Below, one piece after another: positions 4,496 to 33,770 of a stretch of 64,000 nucleotides of DNA (position 1 is the stretch's first letter; the number at the start of each line of letters is the position of its first letter). The position numbers and the translations under genes were made by a program. The notes beneath the pieces were generated by a model, which saw only the letters and a list, made by a program, of their open reading frames with translations, ran no database searches and was not told the DNA's origin. The DNA is from an uncultured Chloroflexia bacterium. Its GTDB lineage: Bacteria; Chloroflexota; Limnocylindria; Limnocylindrales; CSP1-4. The DNA is taken from the NCBI GenBank assembly GCA_963752475.1, contig CAVVYR010000006.1, forward strand, positions 736,001-800,000. The letters run 5' to 3'.

Positions 4496-5119
4496 ATGCC
4501 TAAATCGAATGCCCAAACCGCGGAAGACCGGCCGGCCGGCGGTGATCTGACGCGAGAGCGGCTGCTGGCCGCTACGGCATCGCTCGTGGTCGAACGCGGC
4601 TGGCGTGGTGTGACCACGCGGGCCGTGGCCGACCGGGCCGGGGTCAACCAGGCGCTGGTGCACTATCACTTCGGGTCGGTCGCCAACCTGCGGCGAGAAG
4701 CTGTCATGACGCGCCTTCAACAGGAGACGGGGCGGCTCATCGACGAGCTCCTCGACGAGCGCCCACTGCCCGAGTCCATCCACCGCGTCATGCGCCTGCT
4801 CGATCGCTTCGATCTGAGTACCGACGTCGGCGTGCTCATGGCTGAGGCGATGCTGCAGGTGACGCGCGAACCGGAGATGGCCGATGCCATGGGCGGCGTC
4901 ATGGGTTCCTGGGGCGAGATGCTCGCGCCAAGGCTGGTGGTCGCCCAGGAGCGCGGTGTGGTCCGCGACGACATCCCGGCCGAACGGCTGACCGCGGTCA
5001 TCGCCTCGTTCCTCGACGGCTTCCTCATCCAGCGCATGGCCGACCAGAGCCTCGATGCCACCGCTACCGCCGAGACGCTCATCCGTTTGCTGGAGCCACC
5101 AGGGGAGGAGAGGACATGA
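4496..5119 (+). CDS. TetR/AcrR-family transcriptional regulator
   Basis: HTH motif [43 protein letters not shown]. Confidence 0.93.
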
Positions 5120-5838
5120 CGACAGACGCCGCTGCACCCGTCATCCGCCTGGAGGACGTCGACAAGACCTTCGGCCAGGGCGATCTGGCGGTTCACGCCC
5201 TGCGCGATGCCTCCGTCGAGATCGAGCGCGGCCAGTTCCTGGTCGTGCTCGGACCATCGGGTTCGGGGAAGACGACGCTGATGAACCTGATCGGCGGCAT
5301 CGAGGCTGTCACGGCCGGCACCATCACCGTCGACCGACACGAGGTCAGTGGGCTCGACGAGGCCGCGCTCACCGAGTACCGCCGCACCGACGTCGGCTTC
5401 GTGTTCCAATTCTTCAACCTCATCCCGACGCTCACGGCGCTCGAGAACGTCCAGCTCGTGGGCGAGCTCGTCGGGGTCGGCGAGCGTGGTGCCACCGAGT
5501 CGCTCGAAGCCGTGGGCCTGGTCGATCGCGCCGGTCGCTTCCCGAGCCTGCTCTCGGGTGGTGAGCAGCAGCGGGTAGCCATCGCCCGGGCGCTGGTGAA
5601 GCGCCCCACGGTGCTGCTTCTCGACGAGCCTACCGGCTCGCTCGATCTGGAGACCGGCCGACAGGTGCTCGGAGCCCTGCGCCGCGCGGCCCGGAGCTTC
5701 GGCTCGACGGTCCTGCTGGTGACGCACAACTCGGCCATCGCCCGGATGGCCGACCGCGTCATCCACCTGCACTCCGGCTCGATCGTGGAGGACCGGCTCC
5801 AGCCCGATCCGGTCGACGCCTCGGAGCTGCAGTGGTGA
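5116..5838 (+). CDS. ABC transporter ATP-binding protein (LolD/MacB-like)
   Basis: Walker [17 protein letters not shown] signature, [14 protein letters not shown]; ATGA overlap with the TetR gene. Confidence 0.95.
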
Positions 5839-8219
5839 GCCACTTGTCACGCGCGCTCTGGCGCGACATCCGCCGACGGCCAGCCCAGTTCCTCAGCGTG
5901 GCCCTGGTCATCGCGCTGGGCGTGGGCATGTTCAACGCATCCTTCGACGCGTTCCTCAACCTGACCGGCTCGTACGAGAAGCTCTACCGCGAGACCAGCT
6001 TCGCTCACGTCACCGCGGTCGGCGGCCCACGCGAGGAGGTGCTTGCCGCCGGCGACCAGATGCCGGGGCTGCGGGCCTCGACAGCTCGCACCGTGGCCGA
6101 CGTTCCATTCCTCGTCGGCGAGGACCACACGATGCTCGGTCGCGCGGTGGGCATGCAGTCGTCGGGCCAGTCGACCGTCAACGACATCCGGATCACCGTC
6201 GGCACGACCCTCGATCCGCGGACGCCGCACGGTGTGGTGGTCGAGCAGCACATGGCGGCACACTTCGATCTCGAGCCTGGTGAGGCGCTCTCCATCTCCA
6301 CGCCCGACGGTTGGGCCGAGGCGCAGGTCCTTGGCGTGGCCGCCTCGCCCGAGTACCTGTGGCCGGCCAAGAGCCGCCAGGAGGTGCTGGTCCTGCCCGA
6401 TGACTTCGGGGTCGTGTTCGCGTCGGAGTCGTTCGTGCGAGAGCTGGCACCCACGGCCCAGCGCTCGGAAGTGCTCTTCCGTCTCGCCGACGACGCGTCG
6501 GCGGAGGCCGTCGAAGACGCGCGTGCGGCCGTGCTCGCGGCCGGCGCGCTCGATGCCTTCACGCTCGACGAGCAACCCTCGAACGCCGCGCTCCAGGAGG
6601 ACGTCTCGGGATTCGCCGAGATGTCGGTGATGTTCCCAGCGTTCTTCCTCATCGCCGCCGCCTTCGCCACCTACGTGATGCTGGGGCGGATGATCTCCGG
6701 GCAGGTGGCGAACATCGGCACCATGCGCGCACTCGGCTTCCGCAGTCGCACCATCACCTGGCACTACGCTGCCATCGGCGTGGTCGTGGGTGTGGTGGCC
6801 TCGGTCGTGGGCGTGGTCATCGGAGCCCTTCTGGCTGAGGGCATCACCCGGCTGTACACCACTACCTTGAGCATCCCCGCCGCAGTCGTGGAGATCCGAC
6901 CCGCGACGGTCGCGACAGGCTTCCTCGTCGGCGTCGTCACCGGATTCCTCGCGGCCTGGTTCCCGGCCAGGCAGGCGGGTCGCATCTCGCCGGCCACGGC
7001 TATGCGCGGCCAGCTGCCTCCAGGTGGCGGGGGTGAGTCGCTGCTCGAGCGGATCATCCCGCCTTTGCGCCGGCTGCCGGTGCGTTGGCTCTCGGCCATC
7101 CGCGGCCTCGGGCGTGCACGCCGACGCAGCGTGGCGTCGGTCGTGGGCGTGATGCTGGCCACGATGCTGGTCATCGTCTCGTGGGGCTTCATCGACAGCG
7201 TGCAGGTCCTGCTCGATCGCCAGTTCGTGCAGATCCAGCACTACGACGCACAGCTGCACGTCGCCGGCCGCCCAGCGGAGCAGATCGCCACCGACGTGCG
7301 TGCTGTGGACGGTGTCACCGGGGTCGAGGAAGCGCTGGTCGTCCCGGTATCGGTGGTCGGTCCTGACGGTTCCTACACGACCACGTTGACCGCGCTCGAG
7401 CCCGAGGCCGAGATGCACGTCCTGTTGGACGCCGATGGCCGCGTTCTACCAGTGCCGGAGGAGGGCATCGTGCTCGGCCAGGCGCTCGAGGGAGCCCTCG
7501 GCGTCAAGGTCGGCGAGACGGTGGATCTGCAGATCGCCAGCCTGGGTCTGCTCGAGAGCGTGCCTGTGGCCGGCTTCGTGAAAGAGCCGCTGGGGACGAA
7601 CGCGTACACCTCACTGCCATACGCGATCGGGGCGGTGGAGGCCGCTCTTGGTGTGTCGGCGGCCGGCACCGATCCGCCGAACCTGCTGATGCTCACGTTC
7701 GCGGATGGCGTGGACGGCTCGACGATGCGCGCATCGTTGAGTGCCATCGCGGGCGTCCAGGCCTTCGTCGATTCGGACGCGCTGTACGAGCTGGTGCAGG
7801 AGTACATGGGACTGTTCTACGCCTTCGTGGGCGTGATGATCGTGCTTGGCGGCGTGCTGGCCTTCGCGCTCATCTACAACACGATGTCGGCCAACATCTC
7901 CGAGCGTCAGGGGGAGCTGGCCGTCTTGCGCACGCTCGGTCTTTCGCGGCGGGCCATCGGCTCCATGGTGACGATCCAGAACCTGTTGCTGACGATCGTG
8001 GGGCTCGTGCCGGGCCTCATCTTCGGCTGGGTCCTGGCCTGGGTCTTCATGTACGCCTTCAGTTCCGACATGTTCGCCTTCGAGCTATACGTCCGGCCGA
8101 TGACCTTCGCACTCACGTCGGTGGCCATCATCGTGGTCGGGCTGCTCTCGCAGTGGCCCGCCCTGCGCGCGGTCGGTCGGCTGGAGCTGGGGAAGATCGT
8201 GCGGGACCGTTCGTTCTGA
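5835..8219 (+). CDS. FtsX/MacB-like ABC permease (two repeats)
   Basis: Two extracytoplasmic domain + TM blocks with IGTMRALG and ELAVLRTLG motifs. Confidence 0.92.
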   Translation: MSHLSRALWRDIRRRPAQFLSVALVIALGVGMFNASFDAFLNLTGSYEKLYRETSFAHVTAVGGPREEVLAAGDQMPGLRASTARTVADVPFLVGEDHTMLGRAVGMQSSGQSTVNDIRITVGTTLDPRTPHGVVVEQHMAAHFDLEPGEALSISTPDGWAEAQVLGVAASPEYLWPAKSRQEVLVLPDDFGVVFASESFVRELAPTAQRSEVLFRLADDASAEAVEDARAAVLAAGALDAFTLDEQPSNAALQEDVSGFAEMSVMFPAFFLIAAAFATYVMLGRMISGQVANIGTMRALGFRSRTITWHYAAIGVVVGVVASVVGVVIGALLAEGITRLYTTTLSIPAAVVEIRPATVATGFLVGVVTGFLAAWFPARQAGRISPATAMRGQLPPGGGGESLLERIIPPLRRLPVRWLSAIRGLGRARRRSVASVVGVMLATMLVIVSWGFIDSVQVLLDRQFVQIQHYDAQLHVAGRPAEQIATDVRAVDGVTGVEEALVVPVSVVGPDGSYTTTLTALEPEAEMHVLLDADGRVLPVPEEGIVLGQALEGALGVKVGETVDLQIASLGLLESVPVAGFVKEPLGTNAYTSLPYAIGAVEAALGVSAAGTDPPNLLMLTFADGVDGSTMRASLSAIAGVQAFVDSDALYELVQEYMGLFYAFVGVMIVLGGVLAFALIYNTMSANISERQGELAVLRTLGLSRRAIGSMVTIQNLLLTIVGLVPGLIFGWVLAWVFMYAFSSDMFAFELYVRPMTFALTSVAIIVVGLLSQWPALRAVGRLELGKIVRDRSF

Positions 8220-30312: not shown

Positions 30313-30419
30313 CGAACCGGTCCGTATCGTACACCAGGTCGACAGACATTGCAATACGGTCCGTCTCGTTAGTTTGGGTTGCAGTCTGGTTGCAATCGAG
30401 ACGCATCGTCTCGTATACT
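30313..30419. promoter_or_regulatory. Divergent sigma70-type promoters with three palindromic operators
   Basis: Minus promoter TTGCAA(30354-30349)-17-TACGAT(30331-30326); plus promoter TTGCAA(30390)-18-TATACT(30414). Operators CGAACCG-N3-CGTATCG (30313), CAATACG-N3-CGTCTCG (30352) and perfect CGAGACG-N3-CGTCTCG (30397). Confidence 0.8.
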
Positions 30420-30427
30420 GTCGCCTC

Positions 30428-31129
30428 ATGAACGCTGAGGCAAAAGGCACAACGGCCTCGGAGGTCGATGCGTTGGACACGGCCATCGCACGCGAGACAC
30501 CATCGGATGCCGCCTCCAGGACCGCGGGAAAGATCGGCCGGCCTCGGAGCGATCGTGCCCACCGGGACATCCTCCAGGCCTTCCGGGAGCTGCTCATCTC
30601 CGACGGCTTCGACAAGGTGCGCATGGAGCACGTGGCGGCGCGGGCCAAGGTCTCCAAAGCCACCGTGTACCGACACTGGCCCAAGAAGCAGGATCTCGCG
30701 CTGGAGCTCCTGCTGGAGCTGGCCACCCCACACCTCGCCGTGCCCGACGTCGGCGACACGCGAACGGAACTCCTGGCCACGGTGCTTGGCCCCATGCGCG
30801 CCCTCACGGAGACGGACTACGGACCGGTGACGCGGGAGCTGCTCTCAGAGATCGCCCGCAACCCGGAGCTCGGCGATCCCTTCCGAGCCTCGGTCATCAC
30901 CATCCGCCGAGATGAGGTCGCGCGCGTGGTTGCTCGCGGTGTGCGGCGAGGCGACCTGCGCCCTGACGTGGATCCGACGGTGGCCACGGAGATGCTCGTC
31001 GGGCCGGTCTACTGGCGCCTGCTCTTCGGGGGTGAGTTGGACGCGCAGTTCGCCGAGGTCATCGTCGACGAAGTGCTGCAGGGTTGGTCGATGCGTGGTT
31101 GGGGCGAGGTCGCCACCAACTGGCTCTAG
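30428..31129 (+). CDS. TetR/AcrR-family transcriptional regulator
   Basis: GRPRS..AHRDIL, GFDKVRMEHVAARAKVSKATVYRHWPKK, PDVGDTRTEL, GPVYWRLL. Confidence 0.94.
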   Translation: MNAEAKGTTASEVDALDTAIARETPSDAASRTAGKIGRPRSDRAHRDILQAFRELLISDGFDKVRMEHVAARAKVSKATVYRHWPKKQDLALELLLELATPHLAVPDVGDTRTELLATVLGPMRALTETDYGPVTRELLSEIARNPELGDPFRASVITIRRDEVARVVARGVRRGDLRPDVDPTVATEMLVGPVYWRLLFGGELDAQFAEVIVDEVLQGWSMRGWGEVATNWL

Positions 31130-31149
31130 GCTCTAGGCGGAGGCAGACC

Positions 31150-31848
31150 CTAGTCACCCAGCGGTAGCGTCTCGAGCAGCACCAGGAACGGCCGGGTGTC
31201 CGCCGCCGGCTGTTGCCGTAGTCGCAGTCGCAACCAGGCGTCGCCTGCTTCTCCGGACCTCCAGTGCCCGTCGAGGCGTCGCGCCGACAAGGCGCCCATG
31301 CCCATCTCAGCCACCGCGCGCGCCATGGTCAGGCCTTCGCCCACCAGACCGGGCCCGACGACACAGTGGTCAGAGCCCGGGAAGATCGAGGCCAGGCGGC
31401 GCCGACGCTCGATGAAGGGCAGGCGTCCGAGTGATCGACCGTCGAGATAGGGCAGATCGGAGGCGACGAACGCGCCCTCGGCATAGACGTCCTCCAGACC
31501 GCCACCGCGTAGCTGCCGTCGCAACAGGGCATCGTCTGGCCGGCCCTCCTCGTCGAGCGCCAGCAGTGTGCCTTCGACGATCACGCCATCGGCCGGGATC
31601 GCGGCCAGGCTCGGGCGCAGCTCAGGGAAGATCGCCAGCGGGTCGCTGAGGTGTTCGGTGCGCAGCTCGAGCAGGCCGCCGCCGCGTCGCAGGAACGCGC
31701 GCGTGCCCGGCCACCACGGCTCGAAGAAGAAGGCGTCGTCATCGAAGGGTCGCCCGCCGTCGGTCGCCGTCGGGAAGCGCAGGCGTGCAGGCAGCGCCGG
31801 CGTCTCGCCACTGGCGTCATCGATCGGTAGGTGCAGCTGCTGGTTCAT
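31150..31848 (-). CDS. ATP-dependent DNA ligase adenylation-domain homolog (LigD/LigC-like) lacking catalytic residues and the OB domain
   Basis: PFDDDAFFFEPWWPGTRA (motif I position), FPEL, IVEGTL, DEEGRPD, FVASDLPYLDGRSL..LPFIERRRRL, GMGALSARRLDGHWRSG...WLR. Confidence 0.8.
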   Translation of the reverse strand: MNQQLHLPIDDASGETPALPARLRFPTATDGGRPFDDDAFFFEPWWPGTRAFLRRGGGLLELRTEHLSDPLAIFPELRPSLAAIPADGVIVEGTLLALDEEGRPDDALLRRQLRGGGLEDVYAEGAFVASDLPYLDGRSLGRLPFIERRRRLASIFPGSDHCVVGPGLVGEGLTMARAVAEMGMGALSARRLDGHWRSGEAGDAWLRLRLRQQPAADTRPFLVLLETLPLGD

Positions 31849-31897
31849 CTGATCGTTCCGCACCAGTCTGACACCGATACCGGGGCCAGACGCGGGG

Positions 31898-32857
31898 TCA
31901 GGCCGTCTTGCGTTTCCGTGCGGTCGACGACTTCGAGGCGGCCTTGCTCGAGCGCTTGGACTTGGTGGAGCTCGACTTCGAGGCTGAGGCCTTCGTTGGC
32001 TTGCGTGCCCGGGACTCGCGCGCCTTCGTGACCGAGACCGGCTCCTCGGCGGCCGCGAGGGGGGCCTCGTCCTTGTTGCCGCGGGCGGCGACCACGCTGG
32101 CCTCCAGCACCGCCATCAGGTCGGTCAGCTTGCTCGGCTCGGGCTCGGGCGCGGCAGCCTCGACGGGCTGGCCGGCGACCTTGCTGTCGATGACCTTCAG
32201 CAGGGCCTCCCGGTACTCGTCCTTGTAGCGCGAGGCATCGAACTCGCCCGTGAGCGTCTCGACGAGCTGGCGAGCCATGGCCACCTCGGCCGGCTTGAAC
32301 TCCTCTTTCTCTTCTGGGATGTCGAGATCGCCCGCATCGCGGACCTCGTCCGGCCAGTAGAGGGTGGAGAGCAGCATCGTCGTGCCGAACGGGTCGAGCG
32401 AGGCAAGGACCTCGCGGTCCTTGAGCACGATCTTGCAGACGGCCTGGAGCTCACTCTCGGCGAGCACGCTCTTGAGCAGGCTGAAGGCCTTGCGTCCCAC
32501 CGGCTCCGGCTCGAGGTAGTAGGACTGCTTGACGAAGCGTGCGCCGGGGTCTTCTCGACGCGAGGGCACGAACTGCTCGATCTCGATGGTGCGAACGGTC
32601 TTGAGCGGCACGGCCTCGAAGTCGTTCTCCTCGAGGACGACGTACTGGCCCTTGGACCACTCATACCCGCGGACGGTGTCAGAGCGCTTGATCTCTCCGT
32701 GTTCGGGGCAATGCACCTTCATCTGGATGCGCTTGTGGTCCTCGGCGTGGAGCATGTTGAAGGAGAGACCTCCTCGCGATTCGGTCGCAAGGAAAAGCCG
32801 GACGGGGATCGTGACGAGGCCGAACTGGATCGCGCCGCGCCACATCGAGCGTGGCAT
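31898..32857 (-). CDS. ku: Ku protein (NHEJ DNA end-binding)
   Basis: MPRSMWRGAIQFGLVTIPVRL, RGYEW, IEIEQFVP, YYLEP, LYWPDEVR, YKDEYRE, DLMAVLEASV, basic C-terminal tail; AGGAG SD. Confidence 0.97.
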   Translation of the reverse strand: MPRSMWRGAIQFGLVTIPVRLFLATESRGGLSFNMLHAEDHKRIQMKVHCPEHGEIKRSDTVRGYEWSKGQYVVLEENDFEAVPLKTVRTIEIEQFVPSRREDPGARFVKQSYYLEPEPVGRKAFSLLKSVLAESELQAVCKIVLKDREVLASLDPFGTTMLLSTLYWPDEVRDAGDLDIPEEKEEFKPAEVAMARQLVETLTGEFDASRYKDEYREALLKVIDSKVAGQPVEAAAPEPEPSKLTDLMAVLEASVVAARGNKDEAPLAAAEEPVSVTKARESRARKPTKASASKSSSTKSKRSSKAASKSSTARKRKTA

Positions 32858-32984
32858 TCCACGACTCCTGCTGCGTTTGACGTGCTCCGCTGGGTGCGGG
32901 CCGAAAGCATAGCGCTGTGCTCCTCTTATGCCTAGAGGACCGTCGGCGAGGCGCAAGGAGGATGCGCGCTATGCTGCTTGACCG

Positions 32985-33770
32985 ATGGTGCTGAGACGGT
33001 TCCTCGCCTGGTCGCTCACGGCCGCCGCTGTGTTGGCGTTGACGGCCTGTGCGTCGGGCGATGCCGCGGCCCCGTCTCCGGAGGGCACGAGCACACCGAG
33101 CTCGGAGCCAGCGGCCGAGGCTGGTGACGACGCGACCGTGGCCGCCGAGACCGCGGTCAAGCAGCGCTACCGCATCGTCTTCCTGGGTGATTCCTATACC
33201 GTCGGTGTCGGCACGGACGCTCCGCGTCGCGACAGCTGGCCGGCCCAGCTGACAGCCGCGTTGAACCAGCGTGCCGACGTGCGCATCACGCCCTACAACC
33301 TGGCGCAGGAGAGCCACCCCAGCATCCAGGTGCTCGACGAGCAGGTGGACGACGTGGCCGGGTACGAGCCCGACGTGGTCACGCTACAGGTGGGGCTGAA
33401 CGACATCGTGAGCCACGATGACGGCTACGCGGACAACGTCGCGGCCATCCTCGACGAACTCCTGCTGGTCGTCGACTCCGAGCGTATCTTCGCCATCACG
33501 ACGCCGGACCACACGCTCACAGACTGGGGGCGTGAGCGTGGTTCGAGTGAAGCCGTAGCCGAGCACAACGCCAGCCTCGTCGAGGAGGCCGAGGCACGCG
33601 GCATCACGGTCATCGACATCGGACCGGTGAACGAGCGCATCGCTCTGGACGGAGATCTGCTGGTGCAGGCCAGCCCACCGGCGCCGTACCCCACCGCCAA
33701 GCAGTACGCCGGCTGGGCCGAGCTCATCGGGCCGTACGTCTACGATGCGCTGATGAGCATCGAGCCGTAG
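32985..33770 (+). CDS. SGNH/GDSL hydrolase-family lipoprotein
   Basis: Lipobox LTAC, FLGDSYT, QVGLND; block V reads PAPYPT instead of DxxHP. Confidence 0.85.
   Translation: MVLRRFLAWSLTAAAVLALTACASGDAAAPSPEGTSTPSSEPAAEAGDDATVAAETAVKQRYRIVFLGDSYTVGVGTDAPRRDSWPAQLTAALNQRADVRITPYNLAQESHPSIQVLDEQVDDVAGYEPDVVTLQVGLNDIVSHDDGYADNVAAILDELLLVVDSERIFAITTPDHTLTDWGRERGSSEAVAEHNASLVEEAEARGITVIDIGPVNERIALDGDLLVQASPPAPYPTAKQYAGWAELIGPYVYDALMSIEP

Follow-up and report, generated by a model that had tools for sequence, protein, structure and literature searches.

A conserved ligase-like domain without catalytic residues, encoded next to ku, is a candidate accessory component of bacterial end joining

[quoted passage not shown] In the ligases, the lysine of motif I is the nucleophile that forms the enzyme–AMP intermediate, and we take the glutamate of motif III to contact the ribose, the aromatic residue of motif IIIa to stack on the adenine, and the Glu and Lys of motif IV and both Lys of motif V to contact the nucleotide. 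In eukaryotes, NHEJ also employs XRCC4, XLF and PAXX, non-enzymatic scaffolds that bind Ku and/or the ligase and organize end joining; bacteria are not known to have non-catalytic scaffolds of this kind. A repair enzyme that serves as an adaptor is exemplified by ImuB, an inactive Y-family polymerase that bridges ImuA′/DnaE2 to the beta clamp and whose clamp binding is experimentally established. Here, we describe a pseudo-ligase encoded next to ku, hereafter PL, which probably adds a third, non-enzymatic part to a break-repair system that is commonly described with two, because its catalytic residues are all lost while the domain is conserved and two putative docking peptides are kept.

The locus lies on the minus strand of the window, i.e., the whole stretch of 64,000 nt that was analysed, from an uncultured Chloroflexota bacterium. 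The 319-aa Ku protein (31898–32857; TIGR02772, 1e-77; PF02735, 2.7e-38) is encoded by the only ku copy found in the assembly; its conserved core is followed by a minimal C-terminal helix (KLTDLMAVLEASV) and by an extension that is basic and of low complexity, and the protein ends in RKRKTA. After a spacer of 49 nt (31849–31897, minus strand), ku is followed by the PL gene (31150–31848, minus strand), which was defined by its open reading frame, translation and PF01068 match. The first-pass annotation had described a 232-aa frame co-directional with ku at this distance, and both frames and coordinates are reproduced by translation. The protein reads MNQQLHLPI at its start and LPLGD at its end, with the stop codon at 31150–31152 (minus strand); an alternative in-frame GTG at 31863 would extend it to 237 aa, but close relatives begin at the ATG, not at the upstream GTG. 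The spacer is without a promoter-like or terminator-like site, and none was found in a scan of both strands from 30900 to 33200.

PF01068 is the sole Pfam match in PL (28.1 bits, cut-off 26.2), and the Pfam search found no OB, POL or PE domain, in agreement with the earlier description of a lone ligase adenylation domain devoid of OB, polymerase and phosphoesterase parts. The protein ends 23 residues past motif V, with no OB barrel in the structural model, and all NCBIfam ligase models score far under their cut-offs (best PRK09632, 66.8 versus 989 bits; TIGR02779, 56.2 bits with a cut-off of 227.75). The AF2 model from an 86-row alignment (pLDDT 87.4, pTM 0.81), which replaced one from a 29-row alignment (pLDDT 61, ends and last third below 50), shows the predicted PL protein in the ligase NTase fold with floppy ends at residues 1–20 and 211–232. 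Its top Foldseek matches are all ATP-dependent DNA ligases (E 1e-13 to 1e-10), with TMq of 0.71–0.72 for 9df9/2cfm and of 0.65–0.67 (25–28% identity) for the LIG domain of M. tuberculosis LigD (0.65–0.66 for 6nhx/1vs0). PL is also about 30% identical to the LIG domain of the LigD encoded in its own genome.

The catalytic motifs were assigned through a HMMER alignment of PL to the P. furiosus ligase 2cfm, all coordinates being on the minus strand. At motif I, FEIKYDG of 2cfm aligns with FEPWWPG, leaving EPWWPG (31705–31722) in place of ExKxDG, with the nucleophile Lys changed to Trp and the Asp to Pro. At motif III, IVEGELVA aligns with IVEGTLLA, so that DGE reads EGT (31567–31575) and its Glu is a Thr. 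At motif IV, EGLMAK aligns with GALSAR (31279–31296; for EGxxxK), in which E..K has become G..R, and at motif V, WLKIK aligns with WLRLR (31222–31236; for WxKxK), in which K.K has become R.R. These four replacements, already read from the DNA in the first-pass annotation, are borne out, as are the coordinates given there for motif I. In addition, the Arg of motif Ia is a Glu. The motif IIIa remnant FVASDLP (31450–31470) was placed by eye against the genome's own LigD from the common LDG anchor, and a Ser would thereby occupy the aromatic position at which FDLL of LigD has its Phe.

The replaced motifs are strongly conserved in the 121 homologues (56–85% identity, 229–240 aa). At motif I, the E, W, W and G are found in 121/121 and the second P in 120/121 (one S), and EPWWPG recurs in all but one (17 of 18) of the strongest library representatives covering the motif; the conservation of FEPWWPG, raised earlier as a point to check, thus holds across the family. 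By comparison, motif III has T in 111/121 and G in 121/121, motif IV has S in 121/121 and R in 117/121, and motif V has W in 119/121 and R in 112/121, while T-E-H-L-S-D-P-L and ADG are nearly invariant. Our claim for motif I is based on the homologues and library representatives and not on the loci found by pattern, as FEPWWPG was among the patterns of the locus search and its conservation there is partly circular. PL of this genome contains no lysine at all, 35 of 86 members are lysine-free, K reaches at most 16 of 86 in any column of the alignment, and the mean lysine content is 0.47%, whereas Ku proteins encoded at these loci average 6.93%. Because no lysine is conserved in the family and none is present in this copy, PL, as read from its sequence, cannot form the lysyl-AMP intermediate. 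The lack of lysine also rules out a split ligase made of PL and a separate OB protein. A class-wide search with P0198, a lysine-less NTase+OB protein, returned only LigD genes at 30–35% identity.

A second lysine-less paralogue, PL2, is found in sister genera as a lone dead NTase domain with FEP[SWRA]WGG, in which S, W, R or A stands at the former Lys position. PL2 is about 32% identical to PL and groups with it in the tree, and its motif III still reads DGE. The fixed Trp of PL, specific to the Ku-linked form in view of the variation in PL2, raises the improbable alternative that remodelling has given the pocket a new function, so that PL would sense a ligand, read ends or be an enzyme whose chemistry does not use lysine; the Trp pair would recognize, for example, a terminal nucleotide, 5′-adenylated DNA or a small nucleotide. 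The replaced residues are indeed the most conserved in PL, where drift would be expected of a merely structural remnant. However, PL has kept none of the residues with which ligases bind the nucleotide, neither the aromatic that stacks on the adenine nor the two lysines that bind phosphate, no candidate nucleophile was found, and the second Trp is ancestral, KWDG being frequent in both LigD and LigC. Furthermore, the Arg-to-Glu change at motif Ia and the acidity of the protein argue against DNA binding. The family as a whole has a median pI of 5.2 and a net charge of −7, a charge that would suit protein binding more than DNA binding.

PL occurs in 57 of 151 genomes of the Limnocylindria-type class and in 49 of 50 genomes of one family, and was absent outside the class in a 301-genome sample of the phylum. 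The family is thus limited to one class of uncultured bacteria. Its loss of the catalytic residues and of the OB domain, together with a PF01068 score barely above threshold and a few frame-shifted relatives (L029, L037 and L059, all long-read MAGs), could suggest that PL is a pseudogene in decay, or what is left of a truncated ligD or ligC and is picked up by gene callers. This reading has practically no probability left and is refuted by intact frames in 77 of 80 loci, by lengths held at 229–240 aa, by motifs that are invariant across 43–85% identity, by the presence of the gene in nearly all genomes of that one family, and by its dN/dS. In the closest pairs, the NG86 dN/dS is 0.08–0.26 for PL and 0.05–0.20 for Ku of the same genome pairs; only these pairs were used, as the values of distant pairs (median 0.43) are saturated and GC-biased and not meaningful. 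PL is therefore selected about as strongly as Ku. Contigs from RNA libraries show natural variants at 31702, 31708 and 31717, each of them at the third position of its codon. The ratio below one anticipated for a functional gene is thus observed, and the earlier view that PL is not a decaying gene is upheld by the invariant motif I, the low dN/dS and the maintained ku link. It had also been considered that relatives might carry a normal KxDG ligase at this place while the PL copy evolves neutrally: a sister family does encode a ligase with KxDG, predicted to be active, after ku (L100, L101), but neutral evolution of PL is contradicted.

The link to ku, which had been proposed for examination across homologues, is kept: in 73 of 80 related loci, the gene directly upstream of PL is a co-directional ku, and five of the seven other loci have no more than 181 nt of upstream sequence. 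The spacing in 58 loci ranges from a 4-nt overlap, which is frequent, to +67 nt. PL occurs without ku at L025 and L081; in L025, the neighbouring GDSL and TetR genes are retained and ku is missing from between them. The terminal R[RK]RK[ST]A of Ku does not co-vary with PL, since it is also present in Ku of the PL2 genomes and of family f3. Four RNA-library runs from two studies yielded contigs that are short and of low depth and cover parts of ku, PL and the TetR and GDSL flanks, none of them bridging ku and PL; as DNA carry-over is possible, these contigs do not speak for transcription or co-transcription. Two apparent fusions were rejected, as the Ku–PL fusion P0270 (479 aa) has frame-shifted stretches at both junctions and is a miscalled ORF, and P0134 (856 aa) is a PL fragment run into LigD.

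PL is not the only ligase-related protein of this genome. The same genome encodes an intact LigD (908 aa, PE-LIG-POL order, ELKLDG), a LigC-like ligase with EPKWDG and a LigB-like ligase, so that the ligD or ligC sought elsewhere is present as LigD and LigC-like proteins with intact motifs, predicted to be active. In 5 of 80 loci, ligD lies immediately upstream of ku-PL, and it lies just downstream of PL in G005, G038 and G125. The presence of canonical LigD in the genome, and beside ku-PL in five loci, indicates a canonical NHEJ system with an extra component, not a replacement. Accordingly, the earlier idea of an adaptor or regulator in a non-canonical Ku system stands as regards a conserved, Ku-linked dead domain, but not as regards 'non-canonical', given the canonical three-domain LigD. 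The homologues of PL are publicly annotated as 'bifunctional non-homologous end joining protein LigD' or 'ATP-dependent DNA ligase', and this annotation overstates the ligase content of these genomes.

PL carries a conserved peptide at each end. Residues 4–9, QLHLPI (31822–31839, minus strand), match the beta-clamp hexamer QLxLxL, in a flexible stretch (pLDDT 50–66, residues 1–20) followed by a variable, indel-rich linker. Among the 121 homologues, the columns of this hexapeptide have Q in 115, L in 116, L/F in 115 and L/I in 112, and QLxLx[LI] is found in 70 of 77 assessable loci; these are the unbiased counts, as the locus rows of alignment A2 were chosen for the N-terminal motif and its 84/86 is biased. 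The position of QLHLPI and its likeness to a clamp motif are thereby confirmed. In the accessible text of PMC4564189, the clamp-binding consensus is given as QLxLxL or QLxLF, and in that of PMC5397184, E. coli Hda binds the clamp through 6-QLSLPL-11. Two PL members read exactly QLSLPL, and DinB and the ImuB-like protein of the same genome have the ordinary motifs QMGLF and QLTLF. The Q-L hexapeptide is missing in 7 of the 77 loci, one of which is cut by a contig end, while four others (L065, L076, L081 and L086) form a subgroup that keeps only an alternating hydrophobic pattern. Clamp binding by the N-terminal peptide of PL is thus suggested by its similarity to known motifs. At the other end, the tail TRPFLVLLETLPLGD (31153–31197, minus strand; consensus T-R-P-[LF]-L-[VA]-L-[LI]-[EQ]-[RK]-L-P-L) is present in 78 of 79 assessable loci and is modelled as flexible (pLDDT about 57). 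The same tail is found in PL2, in lysine-less NTase+OB relatives, in P0148 and in the Ku-adjacent ligase of L100 and L101. As the replaced motif, the hexapeptide and the ku link are all conserved across the family, their co-occurrence is more than chance.

Binding of PL to Ku was approached by structure prediction. Two copies of Ku with PL scored 0.52 (runs of 0.56, 0.47 and 0.52), compared with 0.02 for the best of three controls, in a job with its own alignments and a format unlike that of the calibration; the runs share at least 29% of their contacts with a partner pLDDT of at least 72, and no interface was reported. In the calibration, 58 of the 80 solved complexes came up to the mark, as did 2 of the 110 mismatched pairs, but scores of up to 0.60 that reached it comprised only 7 of the 80 solved complexes and both mismatches. 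The prediction lends weak support to Ku–PL binding. In the accessible text of PMC13717202, the C-terminus of M. tuberculosis Ku binds the POL and LIG domains of LigD (D522, R567, K579, L580), and the helix of LigD K579/L580 may correspond to the invariant ERRRRL helix of PL.

These results can also be read as a Ku-associated decoy or gate without a link to the clamp, a possibility to which we give less weight. The acidic dead NTase domain of PL would occupy or mask the basic LigD-binding C-terminal arm of Ku and compete with the LigD ligase domain, thereby restraining or timing end joining, and the partner of the two end peptides would be Ku, LigD or PL itself. The linkage and tight spacing with ku, the weakly supportive complex score, the published contacts of the Ku C-terminus on the LigD NTase surface, and the match between an acidic PL (pI 5.2) and a basic Ku extension all agree with such a role, as do the sharing of the tail with the predicted active ligase after ku (L100, L101) and the retained ku adjacency of members without the Q-L consensus (L076, L086). 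By contrast, the N-terminal peptide closely fits the clamp hexamer, exactly so in the two QLSLPL members, and a hexapeptide on a flexible end is the usual placement of clamp motifs. PL2 has the same QLxLxL N-terminus and a ...LIQRLPL tail, and none of the 13 PL2 loci fetched, from 12 genomes, lies near ku, with ku found elsewhere in the five PL2 genomes searched; as both peptides are retained there without ku linkage, they need not serve Ku. In addition, the data do not separate inhibition from activation.

We favor over a decoy, as slightly more likely than not, the reading that PL is an accessory or adaptor subunit without catalytic activity, associated with Ku in bacterial NHEJ. PL would be a paralogue of the LigD/LigC adenylation domain, stripped of the OB domain and of all nucleotide-binding and catalytic residues, and would be co-expressed with Ku from a predicted two-gene operon under purifying selection. 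The acidic NTase core and/or the C-terminal LPL tail may dock on Ku, in parallel to the contact of the LigD ligase domain with the Ku C-terminal arm in M. tuberculosis, and PL may tether Ku-bound ends to the clamp and/or organize the access of LigD. A more specific combined version, which we regard as doubtful, takes PL to belong to the Ku complex as its stoichiometric third subunit and to couple Ku-bound DNA ends physically to the clamp, with the invariant EPWWPG as a newly evolved binding site and PL as one branch of a wider, undescribed pseudo-ligase clade. The EPWWPG pocket would bind the Ku C-terminal arm or a DNA-end nucleotide, and a lysine-less LigC/LigD-like clade with common docking tails would have arisen from an active Ku-adjacent ligase; if so, end joining in the Limnocylindria-type class would be clamp-coupled.

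Should the N-terminal peptide act as its sequence suggests, it would to our knowledge provide the first link between Ku and the sliding clamp. Neither a dead ligase beside ku nor a Ku–clamp link was found in the literature searched, nor in the accessible parts of PMC8656161, 10.1101/869602, PMC10140301 and PMC11936186. Within a class that is widespread in soil and freshwater, almost all genomes of one family carry PL, which would represent a clean example of an enzyme turned adaptor.

Our comparison with known systems reveals that the LIG domain of bacterial LigD (M. tuberculosis, about residues 449–759; 1VS0, 6NHX and 6NHZ) and LigC have the NTase fold found in PL, keep the same ku company, and have in common with it the framework PFDD...FE..W.G, LDG and ERR..L. 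Unlike them, PL is without the nucleophile, the nucleotide-binding residues and the OB, POL and PE domains, is acidic, and has extra end peptides. Hda resembles PL in that its hexapeptide has the same form and likewise stands at the very N-terminus, in a flexible stretch, but it is an AAA+ protein that regulates DnaA, and the motif alone is no proof of clamp binding. XRCC4, XLF and PAXX are unrelated to PL in sequence and fold and are alike in the proposed role of accessory organizers; as a selected non-catalytic ligase paralogue in a ku operon, PL would be a bacterial counterpart of these eukaryotic accessory factors. The closest functional analogy is ImuB, represented in the same genome by an ImuB-like ORF with QQLTLF: its fold and pathway are unrelated, and clamp binding, established for ImuB, is only presumed for PL, but both are dead paralogues of repair enzymes, maintained by selection, encoded in the operon of their partner and equipped with a clamp-type peptide.

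The 319-aa Ku protein is encoded at 31898–32857 on the minus strand (TIGR02772, 1e-77; PF02735, 2.7e-38). It is followed 49 nt downstream on the same strand by an intact 232-codon ORF that starts at an ATG (31150–31848), which encodes a pseudo-ligase (PL) derived from the adenylation (NTase) domain of an ATP-dependent ligase. An in-frame GTG upstream at 31863 is an alternative start giving 237 aa. Re-translation reproduced exactly the coordinates given in the first-pass annotation. A TetR-family gene (30374–31129, plus strand) is convergent with PL and a GDSL-type hydrolase gene (32985–33770, plus strand) is divergent from ku; neither is part of the ku–PL unit. Scanning of the ku–PL interval revealed no promoter-like or terminator-like sites.

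PL is a dead, lysine-free and acidic ligase NTase domain. Its single Pfam domain, PF01068, scores narrowly above threshold (28.1 versus 26.2 bits), and PL scores far under all curated NCBIfam ligase cut-offs. In a HMMER alignment with ligases of solved structure, EPWWPG falls against E-I-K-Y-D-G (motif I), VEGT against VEGE (motif III), GALSAR against EGLMAK (motif IV) and WLRLR against WLKIK (motif V), bearing out the replacements initially read by the first-pass annotation as EPWWPG, EGT, GALSAR and WLR. By-eye comparison with the genome's own LigD further shows Ser in place of the motif IIIa aromatic and Glu in place of the motif Ia Arg. The window's PL contains no lysine, and the family has a median pI of 5.2 and a net charge of –7. 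The AlphaFold2 model (86-row alignment; pLDDT 87.4, pTM 0.81) is confident at residues about 21–210 and floppy at residues 1–20 (pLDDT 50–66) and 211–232 (about 57). Its Foldseek matches in the PDB are all ATP-dependent DNA ligases, with TMq of 0.69–0.72 for archaeal ligases and 0.65–0.67 for the LIG domain of M. tuberculosis LigD. In our 86-member alignment of the family, 35 members have no lysine; mean lysine content is 0.47% compared to 6.9% in the neighbouring Ku, and arginine makes up 10.6% of PL.

A word-indexed protein search with PL returned 545 proteins at E<=1e-3, of which the best 120 were aligned with the query. These are all 204–297 aa long (mostly 229–240), share 56–85% identity and are for the most part metagenome proteins with no name, a few bearing Limnocylindrales or Chloroflexota labels; the JGI annotation of PL matches is 'bifunctional NHEJ (non-homologous end joining) protein LigD'. 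Across the 121 sequences (best 120 of 545 plus the query), F-E-P-W-W-P-G never varies, save that the second Pro is Ser in one sequence; the substitutions in motifs III, IV and V are likewise fixed, and no alignment column shows a conserved lysine. That the pocket thus remodelled has become a new ligand-binding or end-reading site seems to us improbable. An index-free HMMER search of the family profile against 1.84 billion representatives yielded 24 clusters at E<=1e-30; FEPWWPG is present in 17 of the 18 that span motif I, and the remaining one, P0134, joins a fragment of PL to a LigD ORF. In the ESM Atlas the PL clusters go under 'hypothetical protein', and just 22–41% of members have PF01068. 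Nei–Gojobori dN/dS is 0.08–0.26 for PL and 0.05–0.20 for Ku in the same closest locus pairs, to which the estimate was limited as more distant pairs are saturated. The two signs of constraint that the first-pass annotation had proposed to look for, a conserved EPWWPG and dN/dS below 1, are both present. PL is a conserved family under selection about as strong as that on Ku, and not a product of decay, which refutes the reading of PL as a pseudogene. Long-read or noisy assemblies contain frame-shifted PL copies (L029, L037 and L059) and chimeric ORF calls, P0270 (Ku–PL) and P0134 (PL–LigD), which might be taken for fusions.

Scanning one genome per species gave 135 relatives, with 80 loci kept; FEPWWPG was one of the two search patterns, which makes the conservation of motif I in these loci partly circular. 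At 73 of the 80 loci, ku is the gene directly upstream of PL, in the same orientation, so the ku adjacency noted at first pass extends to related loci. In 58 delimitable loci the distance from ku stop to PL start is –4 to +67 nt, often a 4-nt overlap, a tight spacing that suggests translational coupling, of which it is the usual signature. Among the seven loci without ku, five extend at most 181 nt upstream, PL is preceded by a BP74_N-type gene in L081, and L025 (PL at 4911–5690) has GDSL and TetR neighbours as in the window and lacks ku between the GDSL gene and PL. The PL of L025 has a degenerate tail (VVPLRDLLARLPVRE). Full-length ligD is directly upstream of ku–PL in five of the 80 loci (L019, L022, L059, L076 and L086) and just downstream of PL in three genomes (G005, G038 and G125).

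The window's own assembly (4.25 Mb, 88.8% complete) contains one detected ku, a 908-aa PE-LIG-POL LigD with ELKLDG, a LigC-like ligase with EPKWDG and a LigB-like ligase with EDKYDG. Hence the active ligD and ligC sought elsewhere in the genome were both found, and PL adds to the canonical system rather than replacing its ligase. The 'non-canonical Ku system' of the first-pass annotation holds in that an extra component accompanies ku, and fails in that canonical LigD is present and no ligase is replaced. The LigB-type ligase (L001:1048–2770, minus strand) is split between two ORFs that overlap, one with the DNA-binding domain (2060–2770) and one with NTase+OB (1048–2289), which could reflect a frameshift or an assembly error.

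PL-grade matches (at least 176 bits; next matches at most 120 bits) occur in 57 of 151 genomes of the Limnocylindria-type class. They are found in 49 of 50 genomes of family f4 (46 of 47 without the three unpublished genomes G087, G123 and G096), in 7 of 44 genomes of f1, the family of the window, and additionally in the window's genome, and in 0 of 49 f3 (four further unpublished genomes among them), 0 of 6 f2 and 0 of 1 f5 genomes. Of 301 genomes sampled across the phylum, 17 have PL (E<=1e-40), all of them in f1 or f4. The ku–PL loci L050 and L054 belong to MAGs with the labels Solirubrobacterales and Gaiellaceae (Actinomycetota), which could reflect mis-binning or gene transfer.

In family f3, ku is followed by an active-looking NTase+OB ligase (ELKWDG, DGE, EGIVAK) on the plus strand at L100 (about 5400–6740) and L101 (about 5320–6660), with ligD divergent upstream. 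This ligase ends ...RPRLIVLNSLPFPVS, a tail of PL's kind, and the arrangement is likely the ancestral state of the ku–PL operon. Library protein P0148 is an NTase+OB protein without the catalytic lysine that has EPSWDG, a QLTLQL N-terminus and a PL-type tail; P0150, P0159 and P0198 likewise have NTase+OB without lysine, a [DN]WDG motif and a PL-type tail. A search for this type in the window's class found none. A lysine-less paralogue in other f1 genera, PL2, is a lone dead domain of about 245–260 aa with FEP[SWRA]WGG, DGE kept, QLxLxL and ...LIQRLPL at its ends, and about 32% identity to PL. At all 13 fetched loci (L087–L099, 12 genomes; e.g., L092:3375–4106 and L089:3140–3877), PL2 is distant from ku, and in the five PL2 genomes searched for Ku, ku is elsewhere, beside ligD in G128 and G089. 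In a midpoint-rooted FastTree (LG+gamma) phylogeny of the NTase core (64 hand-chosen sequences; 193 profile columns, end peptides left out), PL is monophyletic with support 1.0, and PL, PL2, the lysine-less forms and the Ku-adjacent active ligase form a clade apart from LigD/LigC with support 0.96; the joining of degenerate sequences may be an attraction artefact. In the simplest history, an active tail-bearing ligase after ku would have lost first the lysine and later the OB domain.

Eight LigC/LigD-like proteins of 330–365 aa have an OB domain and no catalytic lysine (P0148, P0150, P0159, P0198, P0204, P0237, P0254 and P0258). The motif is FEIDWDG in P0150 and FSV[DNE]W[DEA]G in the last six; such proteins mostly end ...P(T)V(L/I)xxLP(L/I), and one is labelled as an Acidobacteriota MAG. 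A third lysine-less, ligase-like ORF (237 aa; L005:1057–1770, plus strand; contig C1, about 154962–155675) is present in the window's genome, flanked by genes for an NAD-dependent epimerase and a possible glycosyltransferase. It reads VEPLWSG at motif I and DGI at motif III, scores 22.7 bits for PF01068, under the cut-off, and has neither QLxLxL nor the LPL end peptide.

One complex of two Ku copies and PL was predicted from our alignments of both proteins. It scored 0.52 (runs 0.56, 0.47 and 0.52), compared to 0.02 for the best of three controls, and was graded 'weak support' in a job format that differs from the calibration. In calibration the mark was attained by 58 of the 80 solved complexes and, among 110 mismatched pairs, by 2; just 7 of those 80 complexes and both passing mismatches did so at <=0.60. 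At least 29% of contacts are common to the runs, partner pLDDT is at least 72, and the output defined no interface. Given the operon prior, the prediction modestly raises the odds of Ku–PL binding. PMC13717202 reports that the M. tuberculosis Ku C-terminus contacts the LigD POL and LIG domains (D522, R567, K579 and L580); in our own mapping (K481 = chain position 32 of 1vs0) these residues fall in the NTase subdomain, and K579 and L580 map to a helix reading ERRRRL in PL, nearly invariant in the 121 sequences (best 120 of 545 plus the query). This helix is conserved across ligases generally and is thus a weak point for Ku contact. PL might instead be a Ku-bound decoy or gate with no clamp link, which we consider possible and rather doubtful.

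PL is encoded in the ku operon, alongside intact LigD, and carries two conserved flexible end peptides; we infer that it acts without catalysis as an accessory or adaptor protein associated with Ku. The C-terminal peptide reads T-R-P-[LF]-L-[VA]-L-[LI]-[EQ]-[RK]-L-P-L, followed by 0–3 residues; its L-P-[LF] is invariant in the 121 sequences (best 120 of 545 plus the query), and 78 of the 79 loci that could be assessed have such a tail. As an adaptor, PL would dock on Ku or LigD through this tail and/or its core. The literature searched, including the text of a LigD review (PMC8656161), an NHEJ survey (10.1101/869602), PMC10140301 and PMC11936186, describes neither a lysine-less ligase beside ku nor a Ku–clamp link.

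The N-terminal peptide follows the pattern Q-L-x-[LF]-x-[LIFV], with Q in 115, L in 116, L/F in 115 and L/I in 112 of the 121 sequences (best 120 of 545 plus the query, a sample not selected by motif), and the stretch after it is variable and indel-rich. Consistent with the QLxLxL motif recognized at first pass, it is present in 70 of 77 loci with an in-frame motif I; among the other seven, one is cut by a contig end and four form a subgroup with the alternating hydrophobic pattern alone. Clamp motifs in the window's organism look ordinary, since its DinB ends ...QMGLF... (L102, G000:C8:339679–343125) and an ImuB-like degenerate Y-family polymerase ORF has QQLTLF (L103, G000:C6:453180–456572). 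The N-terminal peptide of PL would dock on the beta clamp. PMC4564189 gives QLxLxL as the hexameric clamp-binding motif, which the PL pattern matches; this pattern likewise matches the N-terminal 6-QLSLPL-11 of Hda, which, according to PMC5397184, occupies the clamp cleft.
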